From: Bacteroidales bacterium
Lineage (GTDB): Bacteria > Bacteroidota > Bacteroidia > Bacteroidales > VadinHA17
NCBI GenBank assembly: GCA_038207725.1
Contig: JBBQZN010000004.1
Location: forward strand, 2,625-66,624
Reading direction: 5' to 3'
Length of the DNA: 64,000 nt
In this document: one piece after another, positions 15,804-47,444 of the stretch
Layout of the letters: the number at the start of each line of letters is the position of its first letter
How positions within the stretch are numbered: position 1 is the first letter of the stretch
Made by a program: the position numbers and the translations under genes
Notes under the pieces: model-generated
Told to the model about the DNA's origin: nothing
Database searches by the model: none
Seen by the model: only the letters and a program-made list of their open reading frames with translations

Positions 15804-15886
15804 AACTCCTTTAGTTTTACGGCTTTTATGAATATCAAATATAGTAAAATTTACTTAAACAAACTTTTTTTTCAGTTCAAATATAA

Positions 15887-16861: not shown

Positions 16862-16933
16862 AATAACTGCAATATCAACGTCCGCAAATCGTTATTATTG
16901 TAAACTGACGGATCATGCAAAAAAACATAATTA

Positions 16934-16965
16934 TTTAGCAAAGAAAAAGCACATTTCTATCTTTG
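16934..16965 (+). promoter_or_regulatory. Bacteroidota-type promoter of porU
   Basis: Exact TAnnTTTG box TATCTTTG at 16958-16965. TTTA lies 20 nt upstream at 16934-16937. Only 9 nt separate the box from the ATG at 16975. Confidence 0.4.
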
Positions 16966-16974
16966 CAGCACATA

Positions 16975-20388: not shown

Positions 20389-20456
20389 TAGTTATGCAAT
20401 ATTATGGCTGAATAATTGTTTTATATTTGTAAAGTTTGAGACAGATAAACCGGAAA

Positions 20457-21626
20457 ATGGAGAAAAAGATAATAATAATTTTGCTGCTGGCATCATTTAC
20501 AGGGACTTCATCGCTATTTGCCCAGGCAAGTACAGGTGAATTGAATGCTATACAGACTGTTGTTCCGTTTCTGACAATTGCTCCTGACTCAAGGGCAGGT
20601 GCAATGGGCGACGCAGGGGTAGCAACTTCTCCTGATGTTTTCAGCATGCACTGGAATCCTGCCAAATTTGCTTTTATCGATGGCGAAGGCGGGGCAGGAA
20701 TATCTTATTCCCCATGGTTAAGAAACCTTGTTCCTGATATCAACATTGCCTACCTCACCGGGTACAAGAGGCTCGACTCTAAACAGGTTCTGAGTGGAAG
20801 TCTTATCTATTCGTCGCTGGGAGAAATACCTTTTACCGATGAGTTTGGTAACCCATTGATTATTTTCAGGGCCAACGAATTTGCCCTCGATGCCGCCTAT
20901 TCGAGGCTCTTTTCCGATAATCTTTCAGGTGCCATTGCCTTCAGATTCATTTATTCCAATCTCACAGGCTCACAACCTTCAGGAGGTGAAGACACAAAAC
21001 CGGGGACCTCATTTGCTGCTGATCTTTCGGCTTTTTATCAGAAGGAAATTGATCTGGGAACCAAGGACGGACTGCTTGCATTCGGATTGAATTTTTCCAA
21101 TATAGGATCAAAAATGAGTTATTCCGATTCTCAGACAGCTGATTTCATCCCGATGAATATGAGAGTTGGAAGTGCAGGTACCGTTAACCTTGATAACTAT
21201 AACAAAATAACAGTTACAATTGATATTAACAAACTGCTTGTTCCCACACCTCCCATATACAATACTTCAATGGAAATCGTAAAGGGAAAAGATCCTAACG
21301 TTGCGGTTCCCGTTGCTATCTTCCAGTCGTTCTTCGATGCGCCCGGCGGCTTCAAGGAAGAACTTCATGAACTTACCTACTCATACGGACTCGAATACTG
21401 GTACAACAATCAGTTTGCAATAAGGGGTGGATATTTTCAGGAAAATGAAACAAAAGGGAACAGAAAATATTTTACAACAGGAGCAGGATTCAGACTAAAT
21501 GTCTTTACCCTCGACTTCTCATACCTGATGCCGCTCGCACAGAATCATCCACTTGCGCGAACTCTCAGGTTTTCACTTGCATTCGATTTTAATGCTTTAA
21601 GAAACGCAAGCAGGGTAAAGACATGA
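20457..21626 (+). CDS. porV: Type IX secretion outer-membrane protein PorV (LptO)
   Basis: Signal peptide, then VVPFLTIAPDSRAGAMGDAGVATSPD...WNPAKFAF, typical of PorV. FadL-like barrel size. Conserved porU-porV adjacency. Confidence 0.85.
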   Translation: MEKKIIIILLLASFTGTSSLFAQASTGELNAIQTVVPFLTIAPDSRAGAMGDAGVATSPDVFSMHWNPAKFAFIDGEGGAGISYSPWLRNLVPDINIAYLTGYKRLDSKQVLSGSLIYSSLGEIPFTDEFGNPLIIFRANEFALDAAYSRLFSDNLSGAIAFRFIYSNLTGSQPSGGEDTKPGTSFAADLSAFYQKEIDLGTKDGLLAFGLNFSNIGSKMSYSDSQTADFIPMNMRVGSAGTVNLDNYNKITVTIDINKLLVPTPPIYNTSMEIVKGKDPNVAVPVAIFQSFFDAPGGFKEELHELTYSYGLEYWYNNQFAIRGGYFQENETKGNRKYFTTGAGFRLNVFTLDFSYLMPLAQNHPLARTLRFSLAFDFNALRNASRVKT

Positions 21627-26884: not shown

Positions 26885-27856
26885 TTAATCGAATGACTGG
26901 CCGGTTTTTAAGGCAATCTCGATCAACCTCACATATTCTTCCGGAGTTAGGTCATTAAAGTAATAATTTACAGGATCAACATTTTTCCCGTTTATCTTTA
27001 TCTCATAATGCAAGTGTGGAGCAAGTGACATTCCTGTATTGCCAACATATCCAATTACATCTCCCCTCTTCACTTTCTGTCCCACCCTTACATTGAAGCC
27101 TTCCATATGTCCATAGATACTTGTATAGCCGAAACCGTGATCAATGATTATATGATTGCCAAGGCCTCTCTTATCAGGTTTCACAGCCGCTATTACACCA
27201 TCTCCTGTTGAGTAAATATTTGTACCGGAGGGAGCAGTAAAATCCATGCCGGCATGGAATTTTGTGATTTTATAGAAAGGATGAATTCTTAAACCATATC
27301 CCGAAGCAGTACGTGTCAGATCCTTATTATATATAGGTAGAATTGCTGGAATGCATCTGAGCATATCTTCCTTTTTGAGTGCCAGTTCAATGAGGTCATC
27401 AAACGATCTGGATTGTACATAAACTCTTTTGCGGATCTTATCAAGGCGTTCTGAGGTTTCGATTACTAGTTTTGAATTTGTGTAACCCTCCAGTGATTTA
27501 TAACGATTCACACCACCCTCACCTCCACCTCTGAGAGTTGAAGGAATTGGTTCAGCTTCAAAGATTGTCCGGTAAAGATTATCATCGGTTTTCTGAAGTC
27601 CGGCAAGCACGTTTTCAATATTTCCCATCTCTCTCTGGATAAGGTCATATTGAATTGTCATCTGTTCAATTTCGCGTTCAAGAGCTTTTTCTTTGGGAGA
27701 ATCGAAGAAAGCAGCGAAAATAACCCAGTAAACTGTTGCCACAATAAGAGAACCTGTAAAATAAGCAAGAAGCCTGAATAACAAGGCCTTAATACCCATG
27801 CTTACTCTGTCGAAGCTGAGGGAATCAGGATTAAATTTATATTTTGTACGGGGCAT
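26885..27856 (-). CDS. M23 family metallopeptidase, membrane-anchored
   Basis: TM helix and coiled coil, then HAGMDFTAPSGTNIY, IIDHGFGYTSIYGHM, GNTGMSLAPHLHYEI. The ATG at 27856 (MPRTKYKF) aligns with the paralog's N-terminus. Confidence 0.85.
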   Translation of the reverse strand: MPRTKYKFNPDSLSFDRVSMGIKALLFRLLAYFTGSLIVATVYWVIFAAFFDSPKEKALEREIEQMTIQYDLIQREMGNIENVLAGLQKTDDNLYRTIFEAEPIPSTLRGGGEGGVNRYKSLEGYTNSKLVIETSERLDKIRKRVYVQSRSFDDLIELALKKEDMLRCIPAILPIYNKDLTRTASGYGLRIHPFYKITKFHAGMDFTAPSGTNIYSTGDGVIAAVKPDKRGLGNHIIIDHGFGYTSIYGHMEGFNVRVGQKVKRGDVIGYVGNTGMSLAPHLHYEIKINGKNVDPVNYYFNDLTPEEYVRLIEIALKTGQSFD

Positions 27857-27933
27857 AACAAGGCAAAGATAATCAAATCTCAAAAACTAATGAAATGATG
27901 AATATATCGAAAAATGTTCCTGGTTAAGAGGTT

Positions 27934-28902
27934 TTATCTGAAGGTAGAGTCAGAACTGAAGGTAACTATCATTTCCTCAAATTCCTCAGGAGTCATATCG
28001 TCATTAAAAAACCAGATAGGATTCTTATGCTGTCCAAACTGCTTTATCTCATAATGCAGATGCGGACCTGATGAAGTACCTGTGTTTCCGCTAAAGGCAA
28101 TTTTATCACCCCTTTTTACATTTTGCCCTTTTGACACCCTCATGCTGCTGAGATGACCGTAAATAGTCTGAAGTCCGTATCCATGATCTATCGCAACGAA
28201 ATTTCCCAGCCCTCCATTATTATAACCTGATTCAATAACAACACCATCTCCGGTTGCATAAACATCAGTGCCGTATGGAACCGAGAAATCCTGTCCATAA
28301 TGCATCCTGGGAGTACCAAGCACAGGATGAACCTCACGAAATCTATAACCATCGCCGCGTCTGAAGTTAACATTCACCGGGCTTATACTGGGCTGATGAT
28401 CCATCTCCCTCTGCCACTCGGCTGTTTTTTCAATGAGATAATTAAATGATTCCGCCTGAACGGTGGATAGATTCTTTATCTCCTCAATTTTTGATCTGAA
28501 AGAAACAAGAAAGCCTGAGTTTATATATCCTGATAGGTCTCTGAAGCGGTCCACACCACCATATCCTGCCTGCCTGTATGTAGCAGGAAGCGTATCAAGG
28601 TCAAGAATAGGACGGTATCTTCTGTCGTCCGATACTCTTAAACTATTCAGCTCCTCCATTGATCTGTCAAGCTGGCGCCCCATAAGTGAATAATGAAGCT
28701 TCATATTTTCAATCTCCTGTGTAAGCATTTGTTCCTTGGGAGAACCGAAAATATTTTCAAATACTGTTCCGTATAAAAGAGCAATCGCAACCGAACAGGC
28801 TAGCCACATAAACCCGCGCAAAAGTTTCGCTTTCCATGGTAATCTTATCCGCTTATATTGCAGATCAGATAAATCAAGTACATATTTACGGTTACGTAAC
28901 AA
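27934..28902 (-). CDS. M23 family metallopeptidase, membrane-anchored (paralog)
   Basis: Same layout: HYGQDFSVPYGTDVY, AIDHGYGLQTIYGHL, GNTGTSSGPHLHYEI. TTG start, with no in-frame ATG before the TM helix. Confidence 0.8.
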   Translation of the reverse strand: MLRNRKYVLDLSDLQYKRIRLPWKAKLLRGFMWLACSVAIALLYGTVFENIFGSPKEQMLTQEIENMKLHYSLMGRQLDRSMEELNSLRVSDDRRYRPILDLDTLPATYRQAGYGGVDRFRDLSGYINSGFLVSFRSKIEEIKNLSTVQAESFNYLIEKTAEWQREMDHQPSISPVNVNFRRGDGYRFREVHPVLGTPRMHYGQDFSVPYGTDVYATGDGVVIESGYNNGGLGNFVAIDHGYGLQTIYGHLSSMRVSKGQNVKRGDKIAFSGNTGTSSGPHLHYEIKQFGQHKNPIWFFNDDMTPEEFEEMIVTFSSDSTFR

Positions 28903-31723: not shown

Positions 31724-32191
31724 ATGACAAAGTTAATTCAGAGGGCCATTATTATTGCAGCAACGGTACTTGCGGTGCTTCAGTCATCATGCACACCTGA
31801 AGCATGCTTTGAAGAGACAGAGTCATTTCTCAAAGGTTCATTGTATAGCTTTTCCACTGAAAAGATACTTGCTGCTGACTCGCTGTCGCTTTGGGGATTA
31901 AACAGTGAGTCATATAAGGTATACAACAAATCGCTGAAACTTTCGAGAGTTCTGTTCCCGCTCAACGCTTCGTCAGACAAATCTTCCTTTACAATTAAAA
32001 TCAACGGTACTACCGATAATATTGAAATAACATATTCAAGCTACCCGCAACTTATATCAAAGGAGTGCGGCTATACGTTCTACCATAACATTGAAACAAT
32101 TTCCTTCACCAGAAACATAATTGACTCAGTTCATATAAATAAGTATAATGTAACAACTCTCAATGAGGAGAACATACGTATATATTATTAG
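31724..32191 (+). CDS. Hypothetical lipoprotein
   Basis: Lipobox VLQSSC; 155 aa; no motif I recognise. Overlaps the next gene by 29 nt. Confidence 0.5.
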   Translation: MTKLIQRAIIIAATVLAVLQSSCTPEACFEETESFLKGSLYSFSTEKILAADSLSLWGLNSESYKVYNKSLKLSRVLFPLNASSDKSSFTIKINGTTDNIEITYSSYPQLISKECGYTFYHNIETISFTRNIIDSVHINKYNVTTLNEENIRIYY

Positions 32192-32915
32192 TCTGCTGCT
32201 CATTCAGGTACTCAGCCATTCCTTTGCCACAGGACAGGATACTATAACTGTCCCGCTTAAAATAAAGATCGGGATTGAGGCCTCTGGTCCTGTTAAGTAT
32301 CTCACCGATAAAAACATTCTCAATACCGAAGCATCTCTTTCTTTTGATATTAATGAAAAATACTCGCCGGCCATTAATGCCGGATTTCTCAACTACAGGT
32401 ATTCGCAATACAACTATCTATATACAAACAAGGGTGCATTTCTAAGGATTGGCACTGATGTAAACCTCCTCAAGCCCGATAAATCACAGGGAAAATACTG
32501 GGCAGGATTGGGATTACGCTATGGCATAAGCCTTTTCAATTCCGAAGTACCATCCTTTGTACAGGAAAATTACTGGGGAAAAGTAACAGCTTCTGTTCCG
32601 CGACAAACTGCCTTTGGCCATTTTCTGGAAATATCGCCGGGAGTAAGAGCTGAAATATTCAATAACATCAGCATTGGCTGGAGTATAAGCATGAGAATGC
32701 TGCTTTACACCGGAACCGGCAAGGACCTCAGGCCTATATACTTTCCCGGTTATGGAAATGGCGGAAAGAATATGAGTGGAGGTATAAGTTACTTCCTTGT
32801 ATGGAATATTCCTTTTAAGAAAATTAAAGTCATTATCAAACCTGAACCACCCGAAGAGACTGAAGAAACAACCGGTAAAACACCTGTGCAGCAGAGTTCG
32901 GGAATAAGGCAGTAG
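32163..32915 (+). CDS. Hypothetical secreted protein, probable outer-membrane beta-barrel
   Basis: Signal peptide, alternating beta-strand pattern, acidic and Pro-rich tail KPEPPEETEETTG. Confidence 0.45.
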   Translation: MRRTYVYIISLLLIQVLSHSFATGQDTITVPLKIKIGIEASGPVKYLTDKNILNTEASLSFDINEKYSPAINAGFLNYRYSQYNYLYTNKGAFLRIGTDVNLLKPDKSQGKYWAGLGLRYGISLFNSEVPSFVQENYWGKVTASVPRQTAFGHFLEISPGVRAEIFNNISIGWSISMRMLLYTGTGKDLRPIYFPGYGNGGKNMSGGISYFLVWNIPFKKIKVIIKPEPPEETEETTGKTPVQQSSGIRQ

Positions 32916-38026: not shown

Positions 38027-40894
38027 ATGATGAAAAGGTTAGTTCTGTTAACGTGGCTGCTGGCTACATTTATTAATTCCAACCTGCTTTCCCAGTCGAA
38101 AGTTGAGATCAGGAATAATTTTTATGATGCTGAAAGCTGGATTCTGTTTGAAGATTACAAGGAAGCACTTCCAATTTACCAGCTCTTACTTAGAATTTAT
38201 CCCAATAATTCTAATTTCAAATACAGGATCGGGCAGTGTTATGTAAACACTACCGGCGAAAAAGAAAAGGCAATAAGCTATCTGGAAGATGCCGTTAAAA
38301 ACATCAATCCCAAATACAAGGAAGGAAAATTCAAAGAGTCAGGTGCACCGTACGATGCACTGTACTATCTGGCAAATGCCTACAGAATAAACAATCAGCT
38401 CGATAAAGCTCTGGAAACCTATGAACTTTTCCAGAAGAATATGGACACGGAAGTTTACAACGCTGAAATTGTTGAACATCAGATTGCTTCATGCCGCAAC
38501 GCCAAGGAGCTTATGGGTCTGCCTCTGTTTATCAAAGAGAAGAATCTCGGAAGTATGATAAATGAGGGAAACTCCGAATTCAATCCTGTTATTTCAGAGA
38601 ATGAGGATCTTATTGTTTTCTCAAAAAGTGAGGCATTCTATGATGCTATATTGTTTTCAACCAAAACAAACGGTGTATGGTCAGGTCCGCAGAACATGAA
38701 CGAAATACTACGGGTTGACAAGGATCTGTTTCCTACCTCAATCTCAAGAGATGGAAAAACTCTCTACATGTATAGCTCTGCAGATTATGACGGAATTATT
38801 TATACTACTGTTTTCAATAATAACGCCTGGTCGCCACTTGTTAAACTTAATGAGAATATAAACACAAAATACTGGGAATCACATGCTACAATTTCCCATG
38901 ACAATAAGAAACTCTATTTCACCAGCAACAGAAAAGGCACTCTGGGCGGACTCGACATATATGTCTCAAAAAAAGACAGCATTGGTGATTGGGGAGCTGC
39001 AGAGAACCTTGGCCCGGTTATAAATACATCCTATAATGAGGAATCTCCGTTTCTGAGCAAGGATGATAAAACAATTTTCTTCAGTTCACGCGGTCATTTT
39101 AATATGGGAGGGTATGATATTTTCTACTCAACCTTGCTCGACGACGGGAATTGGTCAGTACCTCTTAATGTCGGCTATCCTCTCAACTCAACAGATGATG
39201 ATGTTTTCTTTAATCCGGTAAACCAGGGATACCAAGGGTACATTTCAAGAGATGCAGCCGGAGGTTTTGGAAAAGGAGATATTTACCACGTGGAAATTTT
39301 TTCCAACGACCATCCAAGGAAATTCTTCATAAGAGGTATGGTTAAAGTAGCTGACCTGATGAGCAATATAAGCGACAGCGTTAAGATCAGCGCAATGAAC
39401 ATTACCAATCCAAATCAGACAGTTATAGTATACTCTGATCCGAAAACAGGAGAATTTGAATTTGAATTGCCACAGGGACAATATAAAATAACATACGAAA
39501 GCGACGGAGGCGAAAAAGTTGTAAGAAATATTGATCTGCCTCTTACAAATCCCCTTGACAGTTTTGTCCTTCCCGGAACACTGCTTCCAAGGGCAGATTT
39601 TATTGCTGAAATGAGCGTTGAAAGCAATAAGACTTTATCTGTTTCAAAAGACGATACAATTTTGTTTCCCCTTAAGGTTGAACCAAACTCGGTACTCACT
39701 GTCGAGCACTGGGTAGGCGATTCACTTCTTTATACTGAACAATTCCAGATTAAAGATACCACATTTATCTACAAAATGGTTCCCAGTCAGGGAGATAACA
39801 AAGTTGTTTTCAAACTCACTGACAAATTCAATAATACAACAACAACTGAAGTAATAATAACAAGAGAGAAAGATGTAACTACCCAAGCACTTATAAGGCC
39901 TGAATACAGCAGGGTTATTGCGAAAAAACAAGTCGCAGCACTTACCTCAATGCTGAAAAACAGAACCGACAGACAACTCTCAGGTGTAATCGGAGATGCC
40001 GATGTGGATAAACAACAGTTTGGAAAAGTTGATGATCTCATTACCTATCTGAAAGAACTGGCATTCAGGAATGGCATAAGTACCGAAGAGGTAGATAAAG
40101 CTGCTCTAAGAGTCGCCGTAATGGACAATATCCTTACTCAGGCCGCAGTTGATTTTATGGCCAGAAATTCTGAAGGTGATCTGAAGAAGATACTTACCGA
40201 CCTTAATATCTATGATGCCAAACTCAAAACCTGGACTGATCTGCAGGAATATATATCAGCTAAAACCAATAGCAGAATAACACCTGAAATGCTTAATAAG
40301 ATGGCTGAAATTGCTTTATCTGAAACAGATCCTTCAATTGCTTCTATAAGAGAAAAGATTCTGGCTTACAGTGAAGTATCTGATGGAGGAGTGATAATAA
40401 GGGAAGCTGTTGCAACTGTTGACCTGAGCAAAATAAAAATTAGGGAAAAATGGCTCCAGGCATTCTATAAAGAATCTTTCAGGCAGGGGCTTACACAGGG
40501 TCAGTTATCTGAGCTTGTTGCAGTTATAAGCTCTCTTCCAAATACAAGCGTTGAAGATTATCTGAAAGATCTTATTGCCAATTCTGATGAACCTCTGACT
40601 TCTTCATTAAAAGCAATTAATCTGAAAAAAGAGAATATCAGAACGCCAAAAGATCTTGTTACGTTCCTTATGATGAACAAGGATAAGGAAAAGTACCCTG
40701 AAGAGCTTGTTTCAAAAGCTATTGCACGAATGATTGCAGAGAAAAACATCCCTGCCGAAACGATAAAATCAGTAACTAAAAAAGGTAAAACCGGAATAAA
40801 ATGGATTCTCTGGGTAATACCAGTGGCACTTCTGTTATTCATTTATTTCTTGTTTGGAAGAAAGAAAGAGAAAGAAAAAAATAAAAAGAAATAA
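38027..40894 (+). CDS. PorE-like paralog 1: signal peptide, TPR, PD40 (TolB-like) propeller, CRD-like sandwich, helical domain, C-terminal TM tail anchor
   Basis: Shares with the next three genes YRIGQCYVNTTGEKEKAISYLEDA, APYDALYYLANAYR, NINTKYWESH, GGLDIYVSKKD..GDWG, NEESPF, GGYDIF. CRD-like GEFEFELPQGQYKITYESDG. Ends WILWVIPVALLLFIYFLFGRKKEKEKNKKK. Confidence 0.65.
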   Translation: MMKRLVLLTWLLATFINSNLLSQSKVEIRNNFYDAESWILFEDYKEALPIYQLLLRIYPNNSNFKYRIGQCYVNTTGEKEKAISYLEDAVKNINPKYKEGKFKESGAPYDALYYLANAYRINNQLDKALETYELFQKNMDTEVYNAEIVEHQIASCRNAKELMGLPLFIKEKNLGSMINEGNSEFNPVISENEDLIVFSKSEAFYDAILFSTKTNGVWSGPQNMNEILRVDKDLFPTSISRDGKTLYMYSSADYDGIIYTTVFNNNAWSPLVKLNENINTKYWESHATISHDNKKLYFTSNRKGTLGGLDIYVSKKDSIGDWGAAENLGPVINTSYNEESPFLSKDDKTIFFSSRGHFNMGGYDIFYSTLLDDGNWSVPLNVGYPLNSTDDDVFFNPVNQGYQGYISRDAAGGFGKGDIYHVEIFSNDHPRKFFIRGMVKVADLMSNISDSVKISAMNITNPNQTVIVYSDPKTGEFEFELPQGQYKITYESDGGEKVVRNIDLPLTNPLDSFVLPGTLLPRADFIAEMSVESNKTLSVSKDDTILFPLKVEPNSVLTVEHWVGDSLLYTEQFQIKDTTFIYKMVPSQGDNKVVFKLTDKFNNTTTTEVIITREKDVTTQALIRPEYSRVIAKKQVAALTSMLKNRTDRQLSGVIGDADVDKQQFGKVDDLITYLKELAFRNGISTEEVDKAALRVAVMDNILTQAAVDFMARNSEGDLKKILTDLNIYDAKLKTWTDLQEYISAKTNSRITPEMLNKMAEIALSETDPSIASIREKILAYSEVSDGGVIIREAVATVDLSKIKIREKWLQAFYKESFRQGLTQGQLSELVAVISSLPNTSVEDYLKDLIANSDEPLTSSLKAINLKKENIRTPKDLVTFLMMNKDKEKYPEELVSKAIARMIAEKNIPAETIKSVTKKGKTGIKWILWVIPVALLLFIYFLFGRKKEKEKNKKK

Positions 40895-40912
40895 GCATTA
40901 GTGTTTTCTTTA

Positions 40913-40920
40913 TAAATTTG
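40913..40920 (+). promoter_or_regulatory. Candidate internal -7 box upstream of PorE-like paralog 2
   Basis: TAAATTTG 21 nt before the ATG at 40942; no clear -33 element. Confidence 0.2.
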
Positions 40921-40941
40921 ATGTGTAAAAATGAATAGGAA

Positions 40942-42216
40942 ATGAATAAAATAGCTCTCAGTCTGCTTGCGACAATGTTATTTTTCCCAGCTATAAGAGC
41001 CCAAGATAGCAAAAACCTTCAGGAGACTTTCCTTGAAGCAGAATACTTTCTTTTAAACGAGGATTACTCCGACGCTCTGGCTTTTTACCTTCAGCTGCAT
41101 GAAAAAATGCCTGAAAACGCAAATATTGCATATAAAACAGGTTTGTGTTATCTGAACATCCCCGGGAAAAAGAACCTCGCTGTTTCCCTTCTCGAGCAGG
41201 CATCGAAAAATATGTCGGCCAAACATAAGGAGGGAACAATAAATCAGGTGGCAGCTCCATATGATGCCCTTTATAACCTTGCGACTGCATACAGGGTAAA
41301 CTATATGTTTGACAAGGCCAAGGAGGCATTTCTGAAATACTCTGCAACATTGCTCCCTGATGACAGAGAGAATCTCGAATTCATAAAACACGAAATTGAG
41401 GTGTGCGATTATGCAAAAAAAACAGTTTCAAATCCTGTCTCATTCACTGAAGAGAATATGGGTGAACTGTTCAATGATGATAAATCGAACTACAACCCTT
41501 TGATCTCAGCCGACGGAAAGACATTTGCTTTCATGGTAACACTGAAATTCTACAACGCTGTAATGGTGTCAAACCTTATAAACGGTAAATGGTCAGGACC
41601 AATAAACATATCGCCAGATCTTCAGGTTGATGGCGATTTTTCAATATCATGCCTCTCACCTGACGGGAAGTTATTATTCCTTTCAAAAGATGATAATTAT
41701 AACAGCGATATATATGTAAGTTTGTTTGATAAGGGAAAATGGAATCCTGTTACTAAACTAAATAAGAATATTAATACAAAATACTGGGAATCTCATGGTT
41801 TCATGTCAGAATCAGGAAACCAGCTCATTTTTGCGTCCGACAGACCAGGCGGGTTTGGAGGTCTCGATCTTTATATCTCTAAAAAAGTTAATGGAGAATG
41901 GGGATCTGCGATCAATATGGGACCAGAAGTCAATACCCAGTTTAACGAAGACAGACCCTTCCTGATAAATCAGGGTAAAACAATCTTTTTCAGTTCACAG
42001 GGGCATGATAATATAGGAGGTTATGACCTTTTCAAATCAGATTTACAGAATAATTCACTATGGAGTAAGCCCCAGAACCTCGGCTATCCCTTAAACACGC
42101 CGGATGACAATACATTTTTTATGCCTGCCTCAAACGGAAAAACGGGGTATTATTCTGCCTATAAAGATACAGGAAACCTGGGCAAAGAGGATATTTACAA
42201 AATTACCTTTAAATAA
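40942..42216 (+). CDS. PorE-like paralog 2: signal peptide, TPR and PD40 propeller only
   Basis: YKTGLCYLNIPGKKNLAVSLLEQA, APYDALYNLATAYR, NINTKYWESH, GGLDLYISKK.NGEWG, NEDRPF, GGYDLF. Ends right after the propeller. Confidence 0.65.
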   Translation: MNKIALSLLATMLFFPAIRAQDSKNLQETFLEAEYFLLNEDYSDALAFYLQLHEKMPENANIAYKTGLCYLNIPGKKNLAVSLLEQASKNMSAKHKEGTINQVAAPYDALYNLATAYRVNYMFDKAKEAFLKYSATLLPDDRENLEFIKHEIEVCDYAKKTVSNPVSFTEENMGELFNDDKSNYNPLISADGKTFAFMVTLKFYNAVMVSNLINGKWSGPINISPDLQVDGDFSISCLSPDGKLLFLSKDDNYNSDIYVSLFDKGKWNPVTKLNKNINTKYWESHGFMSESGNQLIFASDRPGGFGGLDLYISKKVNGEWGSAINMGPEVNTQFNEDRPFLINQGKTIFFSSQGHDNIGGYDLFKSDLQNNSLWSKPQNLGYPLNTPDDNTFFMPASNGKTGYYSAYKDTGNLGKEDIYKITFK

Positions 42217-42268
42217 AATTGCGGTTCTTATAACCATTTGAAATATAAAAATAACTATATTTGCTTTG

Positions 42269-44239
42269 ATGATAAAATTCAGAGCAAAATTCATAGTTTT
42301 CAGGTTGCAGCTTCTCACTCTGTTAATCCTCCCAAATGCTGCATCATCTCAGTCTTCAGAAGAGATGAAGAAAATATTTGCACAGGCTGAGTCCTATTTT
42401 CTTTATGAAGAATATGAACTTGCAAATCAACTCTACATATTGCTGGAGTCTCCTGACAATATGAATATTAAGTATAAAATAGGCACATGCTACCTTAATA
42501 TTCCCGGAGAAAAAGAAAAATCTATCCCTTATCTTGAAGATGCAGTAAAGAGCGCCTCATACGACTCAAAAACTGAAACTTTTAAAGAGATTAAGGCTCC
42601 GCTGGATGCATTTTTCTCTCTCGCAAAAGCTTATATGATAAATAATGAGCTTGAAAAAGGACTTGCTGCTCTGCAGACCTTCCAGAAACTCGCACTGGAA
42701 ACAAAAGGTAAAGGAGGAATGGAAAACCTCGAATTTATCGATCAGCAAATCCAGGCCTGCAAAAATGCTATTCAGTTTAAAGAGAATCCGATAACATTCA
42801 GTAAAAAATCACTCGGGGCCGATTTCTCGCTTGGATCTATTAATGAAAACCCCGCCGTCAGCTATGATGGAAATACAATTGTTTATACTGAAAGAAGAGG
42901 TATCGTCAATGCATTATTCTTCTCCCAAAGAATGAGAGGTGTCTGGCAGTCACCCATAGAAATAACAGCAGAGATAAATGCAGGTGAAGACTGTTCTTCC
43001 TGTGCACTGAACCACGACGGCACCGAATTATTTCTTTACAAGACAGATAATTACGACGGAGCAATATACTCTTCCAGCTATGTTAAAGGAGCATGGACGC
43101 CGATTAAAAAGCTCAATAAGAATATAAATACAAAATTCTACGAATCACACGCATCAATATCAGCCGATGGTAGAAAGCTCTATTTCGCCAGTAACAGGGA
43201 TGGAGGACAGGGAAATCTCGATTTATATGTCTCTGAAAAAGATGCCGCCGGCGAATGGGGGCCTGCAGTTAATTTAGGCGCAGCAATAAACACCCCTTTT
43301 AATGAAGATGTTCCGTTTATAACCGAAAATGATTCAACTCTTTATTTCTGTTCTGAAGGACACTCTTCAATGGGCGGCTTCGATAACTTTAAGAGTCTGA
43401 AACTTGGCGACGTATGGAAAACTCCTTCAAATATGGGTTATCCCATTAACTCAACAGACGATGACAAGTTCTTTCAACCAGCCAATAACGGACTCAATGG
43501 TTATTATTCTCTTACTACAGACTACAAGAAAAGTGAGATATTCTATCTTGGAATTGGAAAGAGCGGAATTGTACAGACATATGAAATTCAGGGAACTATA
43601 AGTCTGAAAGACACAATTGTGGCATTTGATAAAAATTATAAGATTACACTTCTCAACAAATCAACAAACGACACTGTCGATATCGGTTTCCCTAATAAAT
43701 TTACAGGCCGTTACAGCTTCCTGGTTACTGATGGTGCTTTCAGCCTTACTTACTTGGGGCCGGGCTATCTTACTCAAACTATTGATACATCTATCGTTCC
43801 CGATAACCCTGTATTAGTTTTGTATATCAATGCAGAACTACTTCCTGATCCTTCATGGGTGGAGCTAAAGGCTGAACCGGTAAAACCTGAGCCTGCATTC
43901 TATGAAAAAATTAACCTTGAAAATATTCCACAAATTGCAAATGTTGATGCCAATACACTCATAACTGATGTCAGTGTTACAGATGTCAGCGACAGAAATA
44001 TAAATGATGCTGATATTCTATATTATACAGTGCAGGTTATCGCACTTCATAATCCTGTGGATATAAGCTACTTTAAATACATTACCGACATGCTGGTAAT
44101 GTACGACGGTACTGATAAATTCTACCGTTATGTGACAGGTAAATTTAAAACAAGAGAAGAAGCTTATGCTCTTAGACTGGAGCTGATAAGGAAAGGTTAT
44201 CCTGATCAGATCTTTATTAAGAAAGTTTCAAAGCAATGA
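42269..44239 (+). CDS. PorE-like paralog 3: signal peptide, TPR, PD40 propeller, CRD-like, C-terminal SPOR-like domain
   Basis: YKIGTCYLNIPGEKEKSIPYLEDA, NINTKFYESH, GNLDLYVSEKD..GEWG. CRD-like GRYSFLVTDGAFSLTY. SPOR-like YYTVQVIALHN...YRYVTGKFKTREEAYALRLELIRKGYPDQIFIKKV. Confidence 0.65.
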   Translation: MIKFRAKFIVFRLQLLTLLILPNAASSQSSEEMKKIFAQAESYFLYEEYELANQLYILLESPDNMNIKYKIGTCYLNIPGEKEKSIPYLEDAVKSASYDSKTETFKEIKAPLDAFFSLAKAYMINNELEKGLAALQTFQKLALETKGKGGMENLEFIDQQIQACKNAIQFKENPITFSKKSLGADFSLGSINENPAVSYDGNTIVYTERRGIVNALFFSQRMRGVWQSPIEITAEINAGEDCSSCALNHDGTELFLYKTDNYDGAIYSSSYVKGAWTPIKKLNKNINTKFYESHASISADGRKLYFASNRDGGQGNLDLYVSEKDAAGEWGPAVNLGAAINTPFNEDVPFITENDSTLYFCSEGHSSMGGFDNFKSLKLGDVWKTPSNMGYPINSTDDDKFFQPANNGLNGYYSLTTDYKKSEIFYLGIGKSGIVQTYEIQGTISLKDTIVAFDKNYKITLLNKSTNDTVDIGFPNKFTGRYSFLVTDGAFSLTYLGPGYLTQTIDTSIVPDNPVLVLYINAELLPDPSWVELKAEPVKPEPAFYEKINLENIPQIANVDANTLITDVSVTDVSDRNINDADILYYTVQVIALHNPVDISYFKYITDMLVMYDGTDKFYRYVTGKFKTREEAYALRLELIRKGYPDQIFIKKVSKQ

Positions 44240-46899
44240 GAATTTTGTTCAGCAAGAGTTTCCTGATAACACTTCTGTTATTGCGTTTTCCGGCTCTCTA
44301 TTCCCAGCAAATCACACAAAGAGAATTTGTAAAAGCTGTTCAGCAGGCCGACATCCTGTACTATTATTATGAGGACTATGATCTGGCTGCATCTCACTAT
44401 GAGCCACTGCTGAAACAATTCCCTGAAAATTACAACCTTGTGGTAAAACTCGGCATCTGCTATCTTAGTATTGATGGAAAGGAAAAAGAAGCACTGAAGT
44501 TGCTCAAAATCGGGGCCAAAAATATAATAGCCAGGGATGAAGATTATACCGAAATAGGAGAAAAAGCTCCTCTTGATACTTATCTCTACCTGGCAGTTGC
44601 ATATCACAGGAACGATAGTCTGGAAAAGGCCATCAAACTCTATGCTGACGCCAAAAAACGATTAGGAAACCTGGAACTCTTCAGGAATGAATACATTGAT
44701 AATCAAATAAGAGACTGCAGGTATGCGATTGAGATGCAAAAAAAACCACAAAACGTTTCTGCAATACTATTCACTCCATGGCTTGCAAAATATCCAGGGG
44801 CCTCAAACCCCGTAGTTTCGAAAAATGATTCTGTTTTTCTTTTTTCGGTAAAAAGAGAAGGAAAAACAATTATTTATTGTTCATACAAGAATGGTGTATG
44901 GAAGAAACCGACAGATATAACAAAACAACTCAATGCTGACCCTACTTCATTTCCAAACTCAATTACATCAGACGGTAAGTTTCTTGTAATTTATTGCAGC
45001 GACGGATTTGATGGAAATCTTTATTACAGTCAGCGAAAAGATACAACATGGTCAAAAGCAAAGAACCTGGGCAGGAATATCAACACATTTTACTGGGAAT
45101 CCCATGGTTTTATTACCCCTGACGGCAAAACAATGTATGTTGCCAGCAACAGGCCCGGAGGTATAGGAGAACTTGATATATGGAAATCAGAAAAGGACAA
45201 CAGGGGTGATTGGAGCAAACCTGTAAACTGCGGAAATGTTATAAACACACCATACAACGAAAACACACCATTCTACGATGCAGCAAGCAATACACTATTA
45301 TTCAGTTCGGTCGGACATTTGGGAATGGGAAGCTATGACATCTTCAGGTCAGTAAACAGGAACGACTCCTGGACCAAGCCTCTGGGGATTCCCTACGAAT
45401 TCAATACAACTGCCGAAAACAGCTTTTATATCGCATCAAATAATTCTCAGGGTTTCATTACAAGTAAGTACGATGTAAAGAGCCAAACCAGAAATATCTT
45501 CACACTTAGTTCAGGAGAGCCTGCCGACAAAAAGATTTACGCTTATGGAAGTGTAACCCTTAGCGATAACCTTCCGGTTAATCCTGATCAGACTGAAATA
45601 AATCTCTTTGATCATAAATCAGGGGCTCTTATCAGAAAGATTGAACTCAACGAAAAAGGAGCTTTCAACTTTGAAGTTAAACCGGGTGATTTCAGGATTG
45701 TTGTCAGCCAGACTAACAAAAAGACAGATACAATCACTCATAAACAAATATTGGATGCTGCAGTACCGAAAAAGCAATTTACTGACACAGGAACCTTCTT
45801 TTTCGAAATCAAACCCGGAGATTATCAACTTCACATTAGCCATACAGGATACAAAACTGATACTCTGAATATCAATATCCCAATGAAACTGGCGGGTAAC
45901 TATATCCCTGTCACTTCTGCCCTTTTACCTGAAAAGGTTGCAAACGGCAAATTCTTATCCATCAGGAATATATTATTTGAATACAACAGTTATAAACTAT
46001 CCGCCGATGCTATTTCTGCTATCAGCGAACTTAAGTCAGTTCTGGTTAACTACCCTGAGCTCAGATTTGAAGTTGCCGGTTATACTGACTCAAAGGGAAC
46101 TCCGGAATATAACCTGAAACTAGCAGATAGGAGAGCACAGATAATTATTGACTTGCTTACTTCAGAAGGAATTGCAGCGGGCAGAATGATTAAAAAAGCA
46201 TTTGGCAGTTCAGAGTTTGCAGCCCAAAATACCAAATCAGATGGCTCCGATAACCCTGAAGGCAGAAAATACAACCGGCGGGCTACATTTGGAATCATTA
46301 ATCCAAAAACCGGTATTGTTATACGCCAGGAAACATATACTCCAATGCATCTGAGACACTCCAACTCTCTTAAATACTGTATCGTACTGGAGGAAACAAA
46401 AAAGACTCTGTCACCCGGGAACTTTGCTAAAATGAAAACTGATGAACTACTTTTTATTAGTTCTGTCCCAACTGACTCAGTTACTTACTATACAATAGGC
46501 GATTTTTACAACAGGTCTGAAGCACTCACCTACCTTAATTTTGCCAGAGAGAGCGGTTTTACGAATGCCTATGTCAGCGACAGGTATCTAATACATTCAG
46601 GTTCGGACAATATTATACCGGTGGAAACTGTAGTTAAACCTGTCAGTAAGACAGTCACAACAACAGAGTCAGGTATTATATATACAATTCAGGTATCAGC
46701 ATCAAGAAAGAAACTTGACTTAAGCCGGTTTAAAGAAGTTTCAGGTGTGAAAGAGACCGCATCACCCGATGGATACTTCAGGTATTTTGCAGGTGAATAC
46801 AATTCCTTTAGTGAGGCAAAGGAAGCTCTACCCGGTATTCAGAGTAAGGGTTATAAGAATGCATTTATCAGAGATCTCAGATCTATTATAAATAAATAG
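44236..46899 (+). CDS. PorE-like paralog 4: signal peptide, TPR, PD40 propeller, two CRD-like segments, OmpA_C-like, two SPOR-like domains
   Basis: ATGA overlap with paralog 3. NINTFYWESH, GELDIWKSEKD..GDWS. CRD-like GAFNFEVKPGDFRIVV and GTFFFEIKPGDYQLHISHTGY. OmpA_C NILFEYNSYKL...VAGYTDSKGTPEYNLKLADRRAQ...NRRATF. SPOR-like IYTIQVSASR...FRYFAGEYNSFSEAKEALPGIQSKGYKNAFIRDL. Confidence 0.7.
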   Translation: MRILFSKSFLITLLLLRFPALYSQQITQREFVKAVQQADILYYYYEDYDLAASHYEPLLKQFPENYNLVVKLGICYLSIDGKEKEALKLLKIGAKNIIARDEDYTEIGEKAPLDTYLYLAVAYHRNDSLEKAIKLYADAKKRLGNLELFRNEYIDNQIRDCRYAIEMQKKPQNVSAILFTPWLAKYPGASNPVVSKNDSVFLFSVKREGKTIIYCSYKNGVWKKPTDITKQLNADPTSFPNSITSDGKFLVIYCSDGFDGNLYYSQRKDTTWSKAKNLGRNINTFYWESHGFITPDGKTMYVASNRPGGIGELDIWKSEKDNRGDWSKPVNCGNVINTPYNENTPFYDAASNTLLFSSVGHLGMGSYDIFRSVNRNDSWTKPLGIPYEFNTTAENSFYIASNNSQGFITSKYDVKSQTRNIFTLSSGEPADKKIYAYGSVTLSDNLPVNPDQTEINLFDHKSGALIRKIELNEKGAFNFEVKPGDFRIVVSQTNKKTDTITHKQILDAAVPKKQFTDTGTFFFEIKPGDYQLHISHTGYKTDTLNINIPMKLAGNYIPVTSALLPEKVANGKFLSIRNILFEYNSYKLSADAISAISELKSVLVNYPELRFEVAGYTDSKGTPEYNLKLADRRAQIIIDLLTSEGIAAGRMIKKAFGSSEFAAQNTKSDGSDNPEGRKYNRRATFGIINPKTGIVIRQETYTPMHLRHSNSLKYCIVLEETKKTLSPGNFAKMKTDELLFISSVPTDSVTYYTIGDFYNRSEALTYLNFARESGFTNAYVSDRYLIHSGSDNIIPVETVVKPVSKTVTTTESGIIYTIQVSASRKKLDLSRFKEVSGVKETASPDGYFRYFAGEYNSFSEAKEALPGIQSKGYKNAFIRDLRSIINK

Positions 46900-46919: not shown

Positions 46920-47444
46920 ATGAAATACGAAAAAATCAGGCTCAGAGCCCTTGAACCAGAAGATCTTGAACTTCTGTATGAGTGGGAGAATAATGATAAC
47001 TACTGGATAATCAGTAATACAGTCTCTCCATTTTCAAAATATACATTGAAGCGATATCTTGAAAACTCGCATAAGAATGTTTACGAAACTGGTCAGCAAA
47101 GACTTATGATTGACCACATTGACGACAAGGTTACAATCGGCACGATCGACATTTTTGATTTTGATCACTTCCACAAAAGGGCTGGTCTGGGTATATTAAT
47201 TGCCAATGAAGCGTACCGCAGGAAAGGATATGCATCAATGGCGCTGACATGTCTTATTGACTATTGTTTCAAAACTCTTCAGCTGCATCAGCTATATTGC
47301 AATATTCTGGCCAACAATTGTGAAAGCATGGATCTCTTTAAGAAACAGGGATTCATACAGACTGGCAATAAAAAAGACTGGATTAAGACTTCAAAAGGAT
47401 ATATTGACGAGGCAATTTTTCAGTTGGAGAATAAGGACGAATAG
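46920..47444 (+). CDS. GNAT family N-acetyltransferase (RimJ/RimL-like)
   Basis: IRLRALEPEDLELLYEWEN, RRKGYASMAL (acetyl-CoA loop); 174 aa. Confidence 0.75.
   Translation: MKYEKIRLRALEPEDLELLYEWENNDNYWIISNTVSPFSKYTLKRYLENSHKNVYETGQQRLMIDHIDDKVTIGTIDIFDFDHFHKRAGLGILIANEAYRRKGYASMALTCLIDYCFKTLQLHQLYCNILANNCESMDLFKKQGFIQTGNKKDWIKTSKGYIDEAIFQLENKDE

Follow-up and report, generated by a model that had tools for sequence, protein, structure and literature searches.

The locus described here bears on how the Bacteroidota hold outer membrane and wall together as cells grow and divide. A 2025 survey did not find tol-pal loci in this phylum and put forward PorE, a fusion of CpoB, TolB and Pal folds, as a tether in Bacteroidetes that is perhaps carried to the septum (PMC12204202); a Tol-Pal-like view of PorE is thus in print and not new. 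The window, i.e. the whole stretch of 64,000 nucleotides of Bacteroidales DNA that we analysed, contains four same-strand ORFs spanning positions 38027–46899, named here g1 (38027–40894, 955 aa), g2 (40942–42216, 424 aa), g3 (42269–44239, 656 aa) and g4 (44236–46899, 887 aa). These genes and all features given below lie on the plus strand. The gap between g1 and g2 is 47 nt and that between g2 and g3 is 52 nt, both without a terminator-like site, and the stop of g3 and the start of g4 overlap in an ATGA at 44236–44239. The ORFs thus bear out the strand, lengths, gaps and overlap given in a preliminary description of this DNA. An in-frame TTG at 42266 offers an alternative start for g3, giving 657 aa as against 656 from the ATG. 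Neighbours of the array in the window include an E2 acyltransferase gene, a GNAT gene, rlmN, recR and alaS, among others.

Alignment of the four proteins reveals a common body of approximately 420 aa, made up of a signal peptide, a TPR region and a PD40 propeller, with pairwise identities of 30–43%. PD40 (PF07676) scores 64.8, 50.5, 63.0 and 40.7 bits in g1, g2, g3 and g4, respectively, all above the gathering cut-off of 20.9 bits, and TPR families exceed their Pfam cut-offs in g1 and g4, whereas g2 and g3 give weak TPR matches or none. The motif NINTKYWESH of g1 and g2 appears as NINTKFYESH in g3 and NINTFYWESH in g4. The paralogy, the shared body and the motifs reported earlier are confirmed. 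Inspection of the sequences finds no lipobox in any of the four signal peptides, as had been stated, the first Cys being at residue 69–75 in all of them. Each signal peptide ends in (S/A)-Q, and the same junction is kept in orthologs. Judged from sequence, g1–g4 are therefore predicted to be Sec-exported, non-lipidated proteins with SPI-type signal peptides and Gln at position +1. A T9SS cargo C-terminal domain (Por_Secre_tail or type-B CTD) is absent from their NCBIfam and Pfam matches. One kind of TPR-propeller head is thus combined with varying anchors in the four proteins, and the systematic difference between the C-termini claimed earlier holds: a TM helix with a Lys-rich tail in g1, nothing in g2, SPOR in g3, and OmpA_C plus SPOR in g4.

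The signal peptide of g1 (38027–38092, aa 1–22), identified from sequence and hydropathy, contains no Cys and is predicted to be cleaved between LLS and Q. The TPR block (about aa 28–165) and the PD40 beta-propeller (about aa 170–425) were placed at 38108–39301 by alignment and Pfam, and the NCBIfam PorE and CHU_0125 alignments to g1 fall on this region. The following beta-sandwich region (39317–39901, aa 431–625) is all-beta in the AF2 model, with low pLDDT, and its first part is weakly CRD-like; CarboxypepD_reg (PF13620) scores 14.9–18.5 bits in g1, below the gathering cut-off of 32.3 bits. Then comes a helical-repeat domain of about 290 aa (39923–40786, aa 633–920), for which the AF2 model, built from 8 sequences, predicts about 20 short helices with a pLDDT of about 75–95. 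A Foldseek search of the PDB with the whole g1 model, including the poor beta part, gave no match at E<1e-3, and no consistent Pfam match to the helical domain was found among 40 homologs. The domain is rare (108 clusters among 1.84 billion representatives), and its unit is tandemly multiplied in some homologs. The predicted helical-repeat stalk is previously undescribed. At the C-terminus, hydropathy reveals a TM helix (aa 924–944) and a Lys-rich tail (aa 945–955) at 40796–40891. This helix (Kyte-Doolittle 2.42) is the sole TM-grade segment in g1–g4 outside the signal peptides and is a predicted inner-membrane anchor; in orthologs the segment is conserved as LWILW..G.G, with an R/K-rich tail after it. 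More than 100 full-length g1 orthologs are 66–89% identical. By comparison with TonB and TolA, a motor-coupled TM helix is expected to carry a polar or charged residue, and the g1 TM helix contains none of this kind.

The second protein, g2, is a body-only paralog with signal peptide, TPR and propeller and without a C-terminal module; its orthologs are 60–74% identical. In g3 the body is followed by a beta-sandwich, whose CRD signal is weak (CarboxypepD_reg at E≤0.1 in 11 of 30 orthologs), and by a C-terminal SPOR domain (44009–44230, aa 581–654). Pfam scores this SPOR domain (PF05036) at 16.3–18.8 bits, under the gathering cut-off of 21 bits. SPOR is matched at E≤0.1 in 24 of 30 g3 orthologs, and hhalign pairs the g3 C-terminus with the g4 SPOR at 96.8% probability (E 2e-10), which together uphold the SPOR-like domain proposed earlier for g3.

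In g4, TPR, propeller, two CRDs and OmpA_C (the full PorE-type order) are followed by SPOR-like units. CarboxypepD_reg scores 31.4 bits on the full g4 protein and 37.8 bits, in two stretches, on a fragment, and the AF2 model (mean pLDDT 71.5) places beta strands at aa 434–469 and 518–563 of the region assigned to two CRD-type beta-sandwiches (45535–45924, aa 434–563). CRDs had been ascribed to three of the genes; the assignment is best supported for g4, where the full-protein score is under the cut-off and the fragment score above it, and is weak for g1 and g3. The predicted peptidoglycan-binding OmpA_C domain (45958–46305, aa 575–690) scores 56.5 bits with Pfam OmpA (PF00691, gathering cut-off 27.2 bits), and g1, g2 and g3 have no Pfam match to this family, in agreement with the claim that g4 alone keeps it. 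Its nearest counterpart in the PDB is the PorE C-terminal domain 6TOP (4e-17 by sequence), which is also recovered by fold (Foldseek on the AF2 model: E 2e-7, 31% identity, rmsd 2.7 Å). The residues D618, N626 and R633 of g4, invariant in 34 orthologs, align to the DAP-binding Asp576, Asn584 and Arg591 of PorE (PMC7192894). The same model matches the TolB propellers 1C5K, 1CRZ and 2W8B with a TM score of about 0.39 normalised on TolB length, a match of the propeller fold alone. The C-terminal SPOR domain of g4 (46681–46890, aa 816–885) is above the Pfam cut-off, scoring 22.8 bits when the full protein is searched and 29.1 bits, in two stretches, when a fragment is, and its ortholog profile matches the CwlC SPOR structure 1X60 (E 0.007) with the Y-x-I/V-Q motif aligned. 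A first, degenerate SPOR-like unit (46375–46596, aa 714–787) corresponds to the second Pfam stretch on the fragment and has a beta-alpha-beta-beta-alpha-beta topology in the AF2 model. It lacks the strand-1 Gln, and hhalign pairs it with the g3 SPOR profile at 4.8% probability. Of the two SPOR-like domains previously assigned to g4, the C-terminal copy is confirmed and the first is doubtful as a true SPOR domain.

Comparison with curated families places the four proteins more precisely. The PorE family NF052230 (curated cut-off 600 bits) scores g1–g4 at 110.8, 116.9, 113.2 and 145.7 bits, and array paralogs in distant loci at no more than 244 bits. NF053607 (CHU_0125, curated cut-off 620 bits) scores them at 168, 129.6, 126.3 and 201.5 bits and is the best curated family for all four. 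From these sequence comparisons, g1–g4 are assigned to the PorE/CHU_0125 superfamily and are not PorE; membership of the PorE family itself was rejected because the scores are far below the cut-off, there is no lipobox and no porP-like gene adjoins the array. Hence the PorE-likeness claimed at the outset holds as superfamily homology, with the g4 OmpA_C nearest to PorE, and does not extend to the family. Members of the superfamily combine a CpoB-like TPR with a TolB-like propeller and, in most cases, also with a CRD and with a Pal-like OmpA_C. PorE of P. gingivalis (PG1058/PGN_1296) shares with g4 the entire order, including a propeller of the five-bladed PD40 type, and the identical DAP-binding Asp/Asn/Arg triad. 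However, PorE has a lipobox signal peptide in place of the SPI type with Gln at +1, it has the OmpA_C that g1, g2 and g3 lack, and it has neither SPOR, present in g3 and g4, nor the helical repeat and TM helix of g1. Genomic settings also differ, since porE of P. gingivalis adjoins queD/queE and several F. johnsoniae porE-like genes adjoin porP-like genes, unlike the four-gene operon here. CHU_0125 of Cytophaga hutchinsonii shares TPR, PD40 and OmpA_C, but it stands alone, a 656-aa protein with a lipoprotein annotation, without SPOR, a TM-anchored variant or a tandem array. Cells that lose CHU_0125 have a defective outer membrane and shed about 6-fold more vesicles (PMC5891637), a Pal-like integrity phenotype, and a like role may be inferred for g1–g4. 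In P. gingivalis, porE mutants have been reported to keep a normally built outer membrane (PMC5053529), so that integrity is not a role of every superfamily member.

Gene order of the array is kept in about 60 species-level genomes. The 50 complete species-level loci all come from uncultured MAGs; 39 of them have g1-g2-g3-g4, seven have g1-g2-g3 and two have g1-g2; g4 is thus absent in 14% and g3 together with g4 in 4%. In 49 of the 50 loci g1 and g2 occur together. The flanking genes change between loci, and the internal order stays, including the g3-g4 overlap (of −4 or −1), which is found in nearly all related loci. More distant MAGs carry a g1-type gene followed by one to three body paralogs with OmpA_C and/or SPOR; g4 is duplicated in one locus, and distant loci show other C-terminal combinations. 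The carriers are MAGs, mostly of uncultured Bacteroidales, with a few from elsewhere in the Bacteroidota. Conservation of the four-gene order, which had been proposed as a check, holds within this range and is not phylum-wide. Paralogs are less alike than orthologs (44–77% identical), of which there are hundreds at full length, which indicates that the duplications are older than the clade. Taken together, the sequence data indicate that g1–g4 form an old, conserved operon in which g1 and g2 are the core and g3 and g4 are accessory wall-binding members.

These features lead us to a reading to which we assign about an even chance, namely that the array encodes a periplasmic module joining the inner membrane to peptidoglycan, partly targeted to the septum, Tol-Pal-like and no core part of type IX secretion. 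Here g1 would be a type-I inner-membrane protein that carries its head into the periplasm on a stalk of helical and beta-sandwich domains; multiplication of the helical unit would give this stalk different lengths in different homologs. OmpA_C would fix g4 to peptidoglycan bearing stem peptides. SPOR domains bind denuded septal glycans (PMC6895207), and those of g3 and g4 could concentrate the two proteins on such septal peptidoglycan. Contacts of the heads with one another, or with a partner that they share, would let the set link inner membrane and cell wall, preferentially where the cell divides, with a Tol-Pal-like envelope-stabilising role as the outcome. This would fit the idea, put forward in 2025, that Bacteroidota use PorE-like proteins in place of Tol-Pal (PMC12204202). 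The scaffold across several subunits, linking inner membrane and peptidoglycan, that had been suggested from the sequence is plausible; a multi-protein complex of g1–g4 may be inferred, on the basis of operon conservation only, and since g4 is missing in 7 of 50 loci and g3 with g4 in 2 of 50, a fixed complex of four subunits is not obligatory. Loci without g4, or without g3 and g4, leave a module with no wall-binding domain at the locus, which counts against the tether reading. As the proteins have no outer-membrane anchor (no lipobox and no barrel), a link to the outer membrane would need a further partner.

The foremost alternative, which we regard as unlikely though worth serious weight, is that the genes are co-transcribed but independent paralogs, each head having its own ligand or partner and its own depth in the envelope, with partial redundancy and without a heteromeric scaffold. 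The variable membership just described (loss of g4 or of g3 and g4, the single duplication of g4, the other C-termini of distant loci) is in line with this, as are the identities of only 30–43% between the paralogs and the finding that other species of the phylum carry 2–13 PG1058 homologues (PMC5053529). However, independent genes would not readily account for an order and a g3-g4 overlap that persist across deep divergence amid changing flanks, nor for the joint presence of g1 and g2 in all but one of the complete loci.

Homology of all four proteins to PorE, and the closeness of the g4 OmpA_C to the PorE C-terminal domain, raise another possibility, that the set acts as accessory anchors of T9SS or gliding, with propellers holding PorP/SprF-like barrels and fixing T9SS or type-B-CTD cargo complexes to wall and membrane as in PorE-PorP-PG1035. 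PorP is the presumed binding partner of the PorE propeller (PMC12773672), six of the several porE-like genes of F. johnsoniae adjoin porP-like genes (PMC9143113), and our window contains gldJ, a porP/sprF-like gene, porU and porV at 14301–21626, upstream of the array as described before. But these T9SS genes are 16–24 kb away, beyond many housekeeping genes on both strands (ispF, hutU, two M23 peptidases, alaS, recR and others). No PorP_SprF gene occurs within 10 kb of the array in the window or in related loci, and no porP-like or type-B-CTD gene adjoins it in the window or in more than 60 related loci. A porP-like neighbour is what usually marks T9SS-linked porE-like genes in the F. johnsoniae genome (PMC9143113). 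The scores of 110–146 bits against the PorE cut-off of 600, exceeded by those for CHU_0125 in all four proteins, and the missing lipobox likewise speak against such a role; PorE cannot function without its OmpA_C (PMC12773672), a domain that g4 alone has here, and SPOR and an inner-membrane anchor have no known T9SS role. We consider this possibility improbable, and the locus shows that a place in the PorE superfamily need not imply type IX secretion. An artefact or a recent, lineage-private duplication without function, for which nothing speaks beyond the genes being tandem paralogs, is refuted by the intact ORFs, the hundreds of full-length orthologs, the greater divergence of paralogs than of orthologs and the order kept in about 60 species-level genomes, and its probability is negligible.

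Returning to the periplasmic module, its likeness to Tol-Pal (TolQRA, TolB, Pal, CpoB) includes fold matches with the CpoB-like TPR, TolB-like propeller and Pal-like OmpA_C, and a predicted set in which one member, with a helical region in the periplasm, sits in the inner membrane, a second is a soluble propeller protein and a third, with OmpA_C, is bound to the wall, septal targeting being implied by SPOR. It differs in several respects. TolQ, TolR and TolA genes do not adjoin the array, and neither the genes within 10 kb of the array, where no exbB/tolQ-type motor gene occurs, nor the g1 TM helix shows a sign of a motor such as TolQ/TolR. The anchor helix of g1 is C-terminal, not N-terminal, and TolA domain III is missing; the TolB N-terminal domain is missing in g1–g4, which the TolB family TIGR02800 scores at 13–31 bits against a cut-off of 343. 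Tol-Pal has a lipidated Pal, whereas this set has none, and its components are unrelated to each other, whereas g1–g4 are all mutual paralogs. With the SPOR division proteins FtsN, DamX, DedD, RlpA and CwlC, g3 and g4 share a C-terminal SPOR with the strand-1 Gln motif. Those proteins are bitopic divisome activators, lytic transglycosylases or amidases; here SPOR is attached to a TPR-propeller(-OmpA_C) protein, a combination with PorE-like proteins for which we found no literature.

A more specific idea, quite speculative and in our view rather a long shot, is a motor-less Tol-Pal counterpart built from paralogs of one protein, in which the propellers without OmpA_C hold the OmpA_C of g4 in trans, in the manner of TolB with Pal, and set its free versus wall-bound state, with SPOR domains biasing g4 deposition to the septum. 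Candidate propellers would be the soluble g2, the inner-membrane-tethered g1 on its adjustable stalk and the SPOR-bearing g3. If true, this would be the first concrete division-linked envelope constriction or tethering system in Bacteroidota, and direct support for PorE-like proteins as the phylum's Tol-Pal substitute.

Every carrier found is an uncultured MAG. The locus provides natural constructs that bear on the PorE proposal, in which PorE-like proteins are fused to SPOR, the classic septal-peptidoglycan targeting domain, and the same conserved operon holds a sister paralog that the model ties to the inner membrane through a helical-repeat stalk. Keeping the superfamily apart from T9SS also matters for annotation, because the present labels of these proteins are "OmpA family", "tetratricopeptide repeat protein", "PD40 domain-containing" or "hypothetical".

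The genes g1 (38027-40894, 955 aa), g2 (40942-42216, 424 aa), g3 (42269-44239, 656 aa counted from the ATG, with an in-frame TTG three bases 5') and g4 (44236-46899, 887 aa) follow one another on the + strand. Their spacing of 47 nt and 52 nt and the ATGA stop/start overlap between g3 and g4, as given in the preliminary description, are reproduced by the ORF map. In scans of the window, no terminator-like site falls within the g1-g4 intergenic gaps, and the numbers of terminator and sigma-70 promoter sites equal the shuffle expectation, Bacteroidota promoters lying outside the models of the tool. Four-way alignment reveals 30-43% identity among the proteins across the first ~420 residues (the head, consisting of signal peptide, TPR and PD40 propeller) with 90+ invariant columns, which include the motifs earlier proposed as common to the four paralogs. 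Hydropathy analysis finds a single N-terminal hydrophobic stretch in each protein; the sole further segment of transmembrane (TM) grade spans aa 924-944 of g1 and is followed by RKKEKEKNKKK. The signal peptides of the window proteins and of their orthologs alike terminate in (S/A)-Q, and Gln at +1 past the signal peptidase I cleavage site is typical for Bacteroidota. Because the earliest Cys is found only at residue 69-75, all four signal peptides lack a lipobox, as had been claimed. A pair of Cys in the TPR region (C71 and C156 of g1, window about 38237 and 38492) is aligned and invariant in the four paralogs and may be joined in the periplasm by a structural disulfide.

Full-length orthologs exceed 100 for g1 (66-89% identity) and are also numerous for g4 (50-83% identity); without exception they are of metagenome or MAG origin, under the names "tetratricopeptide repeat protein", "PD40 domain-containing protein", "OmpA family protein" or "hypothetical". 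A synteny scan over one genome per GTDB species, with the C-terminal half specific to g1 as query, returned 61 loci, nearly all in MAGs named "Bacteroidales bacterium" and sampled from fens, peat, soil or lake sediment and a few labelled Rikenellaceae or Marinilabiliaceae. Complete MAG chromosomes, such as OY970276.1, OY970346.1 and CAWELF010000001.1, are among the carriers. Two module loci (L034 and L055) are present in bins labelled Chloroflexota and Methanobacterium; since these contigs are short, binning contamination is more likely than true occurrence outside Bacteroidota. Mapping by ORF and BLASTP shows almost everywhere the order E2 (an acyltransferase gene), g1, g2, g3, g4, GNAT (an acetyltransferase gene) and, on the opposite strand, rlmN. 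Among the 50 complete loci, running from g1 through the GNAT gene, 39 keep the g1-g2-g3-g4 order whose conservation had been in question, seven are without g4, two are without g3 and g4, one is without g2 and one has two g4 copies. A -4 or -1 overlap of g3 and g4 is nearly universal, and the gap between g2 and g3 is about 50 nt. Across the loci, identity to the window proteins is 47-71% for g1, 54-74% for g2, 53-77% for g3 and 36-57% for g4. Ortholog identity exceeds paralog identity, and therefore the duplications are older than the clade; this, together with an order kept across species-level loci, speaks against a lineage-private recent duplication, a possibility raised earlier. Two consecutive g4-type genes of 837 and 879 aa occur in one MAG (L003, 14956-20266), one from each of the two length classes into which g4-type proteins fall across species, of about 835-840 aa and of 877-888 aa.

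Three distant loci are located at the same position, with recR, a family-2 glycosyltransferase (GT2) gene and sometimes E2 upstream. L064 contains g1, g2, a 571-aa g3-like gene and GNAT, while L065 contains a 1361-aa g1-type gene, a 627-aa TPR/PD40/OmpA gene, a 484-aa body-only gene, a 917-aa OmpA+SPOR gene and GNAT. The third, L066, has g1 followed by PD40/OmpA genes of 663 aa and 616 aa. None of the array proteins of these loci reaches the PorE or CHU_0125 cut-off. Among the paralogs, g2 most resembles the 663-aa OmpA protein of L066 in its body, which suggests that g2 has lost OmpA_C and that the array was derived from classical TPR-PD40-CRD-OmpA_C genes through loss and exchange of C-terminal modules.

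Pfam searches with full proteins place PD40 above cut-off in all four paralogs and TPR families in g1 and g4, whereas OmpA is matched by g4 alone (56.5 bits), in agreement with the earlier assignment of OmpA_C, the peptidoglycan-binding domain. CarboxypepD_reg is marginal on full proteins. As fragments, the beta-sandwich (CRD) region of g4 scores 37.8 bits in two stretches and the beta region of g1 18.5 bits, so that of the CRD claimed for three paralogs the g4 copy is recovered and that of g1 is weak. SPOR, a septal-glycan-binding domain, is over cut-off in full-length g4 and under it in g3; as fragments, the g4 tail gives 29.1 bits in two stretches and the g3 tail 18.8 bits. A profile of the g3 C-terminus found no SPOR structure among PDB sequences. 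However, of 30 g3 orthologs 24 have a SPOR-like tail, and the g3 tail matches the terminal SPOR of g4 in profile-profile comparison (hhalign, 96.8% probability, E 2e-10), and g3 is assigned a SPOR domain because of the Pfam trend and this match. The CwlC SPOR structure 1X60 is matched by the g4 ortholog profile, and the strand-1 motif Y-x-(I/V)-Q falls in register between the two. Of the two SPOR-like domains proposed for g4, the terminal one is thus a SPOR domain; the first unit matches the g3 SPOR profile with 4.8% probability (hhalign) and its identity as SPOR is doubtful.

For g4, an AF2 model based on 34 orthologs (mean pLDDT 71.5) shows, besides TPR helices and a propeller, a pair of beta-sandwiches, the OmpA_C fold and two units of beta-alpha-beta-beta-alpha-beta topology. 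Foldseek ranks 6TOP, the C-terminal domain of PorE, highest for this model (31% identity at rmsd 2.7 A; E 2e-7); TolB propellers and Pal/OmpA_C domains come next. In PorE, the side chains of Asp576, Asn584 and Arg591 bind DAP (PMC7192894). All three have aligned counterparts in g4 (D618, N626 and R633), invariant in 34 orthologs, and by sequence the DAP-binding site of g4 is intact. The best PDB sequence match to this OmpA_C is the 872-aa chain aB of 7f4v, deposited as "Photosystem I P700 chlorophyll a apoprotein A2", residues 746-862 of which are an OmpA-like domain; either the name is odd or the chain is an unusual fusion.

The C-terminal half of g1 is predicted to form a novel helical repeat with a C-terminal TM helix. 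In its AF2 model, about 20 short helices (aa 633-920, pLDDT 75-95) precede the TM helix, and the beta part is poorly modelled. Foldseek against the PDB returned nothing at E<1e-3 for the whole model, whose low-confidence beta part could let a weak helical-domain match escape, and a fragment scan of the helical region in the window protein gave no Pfam match. Scattered sub-threshold Pfam matches in the window protein and 40 diverse homologs (AAA_assoc_2 in four, EAD8 in three, DUF5333 in three) led us to drop any family assignment. Internal repeats are weakly detectable in the window protein (z about 2.5-3.8) and clearer in a multi-homolog consensus. Searched against 1.84 billion representative proteins, the helical domain retrieves just 108 clusters at E<=1e-3; 30 of 40 sampled homologs possess the PD40 body, and the named ones are MAG proteins labelled "hypothetical". 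In several g1 homologs of 1361-1570 aa, the ~290-aa helical unit is present twice or more in tandem before a TM helix and Lys-rich tail like those of g1 (P0002, 1570 aa; P0012, 1505 aa; P0245, 1475 aa with 8 matched stretches; L065 10001-14086, 1361 aa), which would suit a stalk whose length can be adjusted. Only one named match lies outside Bacteroidota: P0277 (KJJ84278.1, Candidatus Omnitrophus magneticus, 2108 aa), with 7 matched stretches and no TPR or PD40 body. One JGI g1 ortholog bears the name "LPXTG-motif cell wall-anchored protein"; a sortase/exosortase-type sorting signal in the TM helix and basic tail was rejected because orthologs have no conserved motif ahead of the helix.

In NCBIfam, all four proteins match NF053607 (CHU_0125 family outer-membrane integrity protein) first, with 126-201 bits against a cut-off of 620, and NF052230 (PorE) second, with 110-146 bits against 600; TolB TIGR02800 scores 13-31 bits against 343. 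On these sub-cut-off scores g1-g4 belong to the PorE/CHU_0125 superfamily as divergent members and are not PorE, so that the PorE-like designation holds at the level of superfamily homology but not of family membership. PorE is an outer-membrane lipoprotein of TPR-WD40-CRD-OmpA_C order, in which OmpA_C and the DAP-binding residues are essential, WD40 probably binds PorP and CRD is dispensable (PMC12773672). In contrast, g1-g4 have no lipobox and g1, g2 and g3 have no OmpA_C. PorE forms a complex with PorP and PG1035, and in F. johnsoniae six porP-like genes adjoin porE-like genes (PMC9143113), whereas no porP-like or type-B-CTD gene is next to the module in any locus. Heath et al. reported 424 PG1058-like proteins, 2-13 per genome in some species and some with uncharacterised N- or C-terminal extensions (PMC5053529). 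Loss of CHU_0125, a Pal-like TPR-PD40-OmpA_C protein, makes the outer membrane leaky and raises vesicles about 6-fold (PMC5891637). A study from 2025 detected no tol-pal loci among Bacteroidetes; its authors suggested that PorE serves as a tether of fused CpoB-TolB-CP-Pal type, which "potentially undergoes septal trafficking" (PMC12204202). Previously described are the superfamily, its occurrence in multiple copies and the Tol-Pal-like logic. New are the conserved g1-headed operon, the fusion of SPOR to PorE-like proteins, a combination for which full-text literature search ("SPOR domain" with PorE-like proteins) found no paper, and a member anchored in the inner membrane whose helical repeat lacks a Pfam or PDB match.

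The four-gene operon is conserved, and its products combine a common head with differing anchors. The reading we favour, at about even odds, is that it encodes an envelope-tethering module, partly linked to division. In such a module, g1 would adopt type-I topology, its head kept at a distance from the inner membrane by a stalk of helical and beta-sandwich domains; both g3 and g4 would be wall-bound and enriched at the septum, where the denuded glycans that SPOR binds are concentrated (PMC6895207); and cooperating heads would couple inner membrane to peptidoglycan. A fixed complex is a weakened reading because g4, or g3 plus g4, is lost in 18% of complete loci; that the four are independent paralogs forming no complex, one of two main rival readings, is rather unlikely. 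A role as accessory anchors of T9SS (type IX secretion) or gliding is improbable given the failed PorE membership tests, the missing lipobox, the absence of OmpA_C from three of four paralogs and the lack of a porP neighbour. The locus offers a concrete handle on possible septal action of PorE-like proteins, all carriers found being uncultured.

T9SS genes in the window (gldJ, a porP/sprF-like gene, porU and porV) are located at 14301-21626. Between them and the module lie, on both strands, ispF, hutU, a CdsZ-like gene, nif3, two M23 peptidase genes, alaS, DUF6452/DUF6048, a sodium/solute symporter gene, recR, an aminotransferase gene and E2. The PorP/SprF-like gene (15887-16861, -) adjoins gldJ and is the sole porP-like gene among the window ORFs scanned (Pfam PorP_SprF 71 bits; NCBIfam 81.9 bits, below the cut-off of 90.55); its product could be a partner of a propeller head. 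The GNAT gene (46920-47444, +; Acetyltransf_3 75 bits) begins 20 nt past the g4 stop and may be co-transcribed with the module, since it follows the module in every related locus, the distant L064 and L065 included; a functional link is not apparent. Upstream, the window order is recR, aminotransferase, E2 and g1, and the family-2 glycosyltransferase gene located just 5' of E2 or g1 in relatives (L001 7458-8327, L002 7396-8265, L064 9050-9937, L065 7457-9466, L066 6543-8498) is absent from the window. The overlapping DUF6452 (155 aa) and DUF6048 (250 aa) pair 3' of alaS (31724-32915, +) is kept in L001, L002 and L064. About 9 kb 5' of the module, tandem paralogs of 331 and 321 aa (26885-28902, -) encode M23/LytM-type peptidoglycan endopeptidases or amidase activators.
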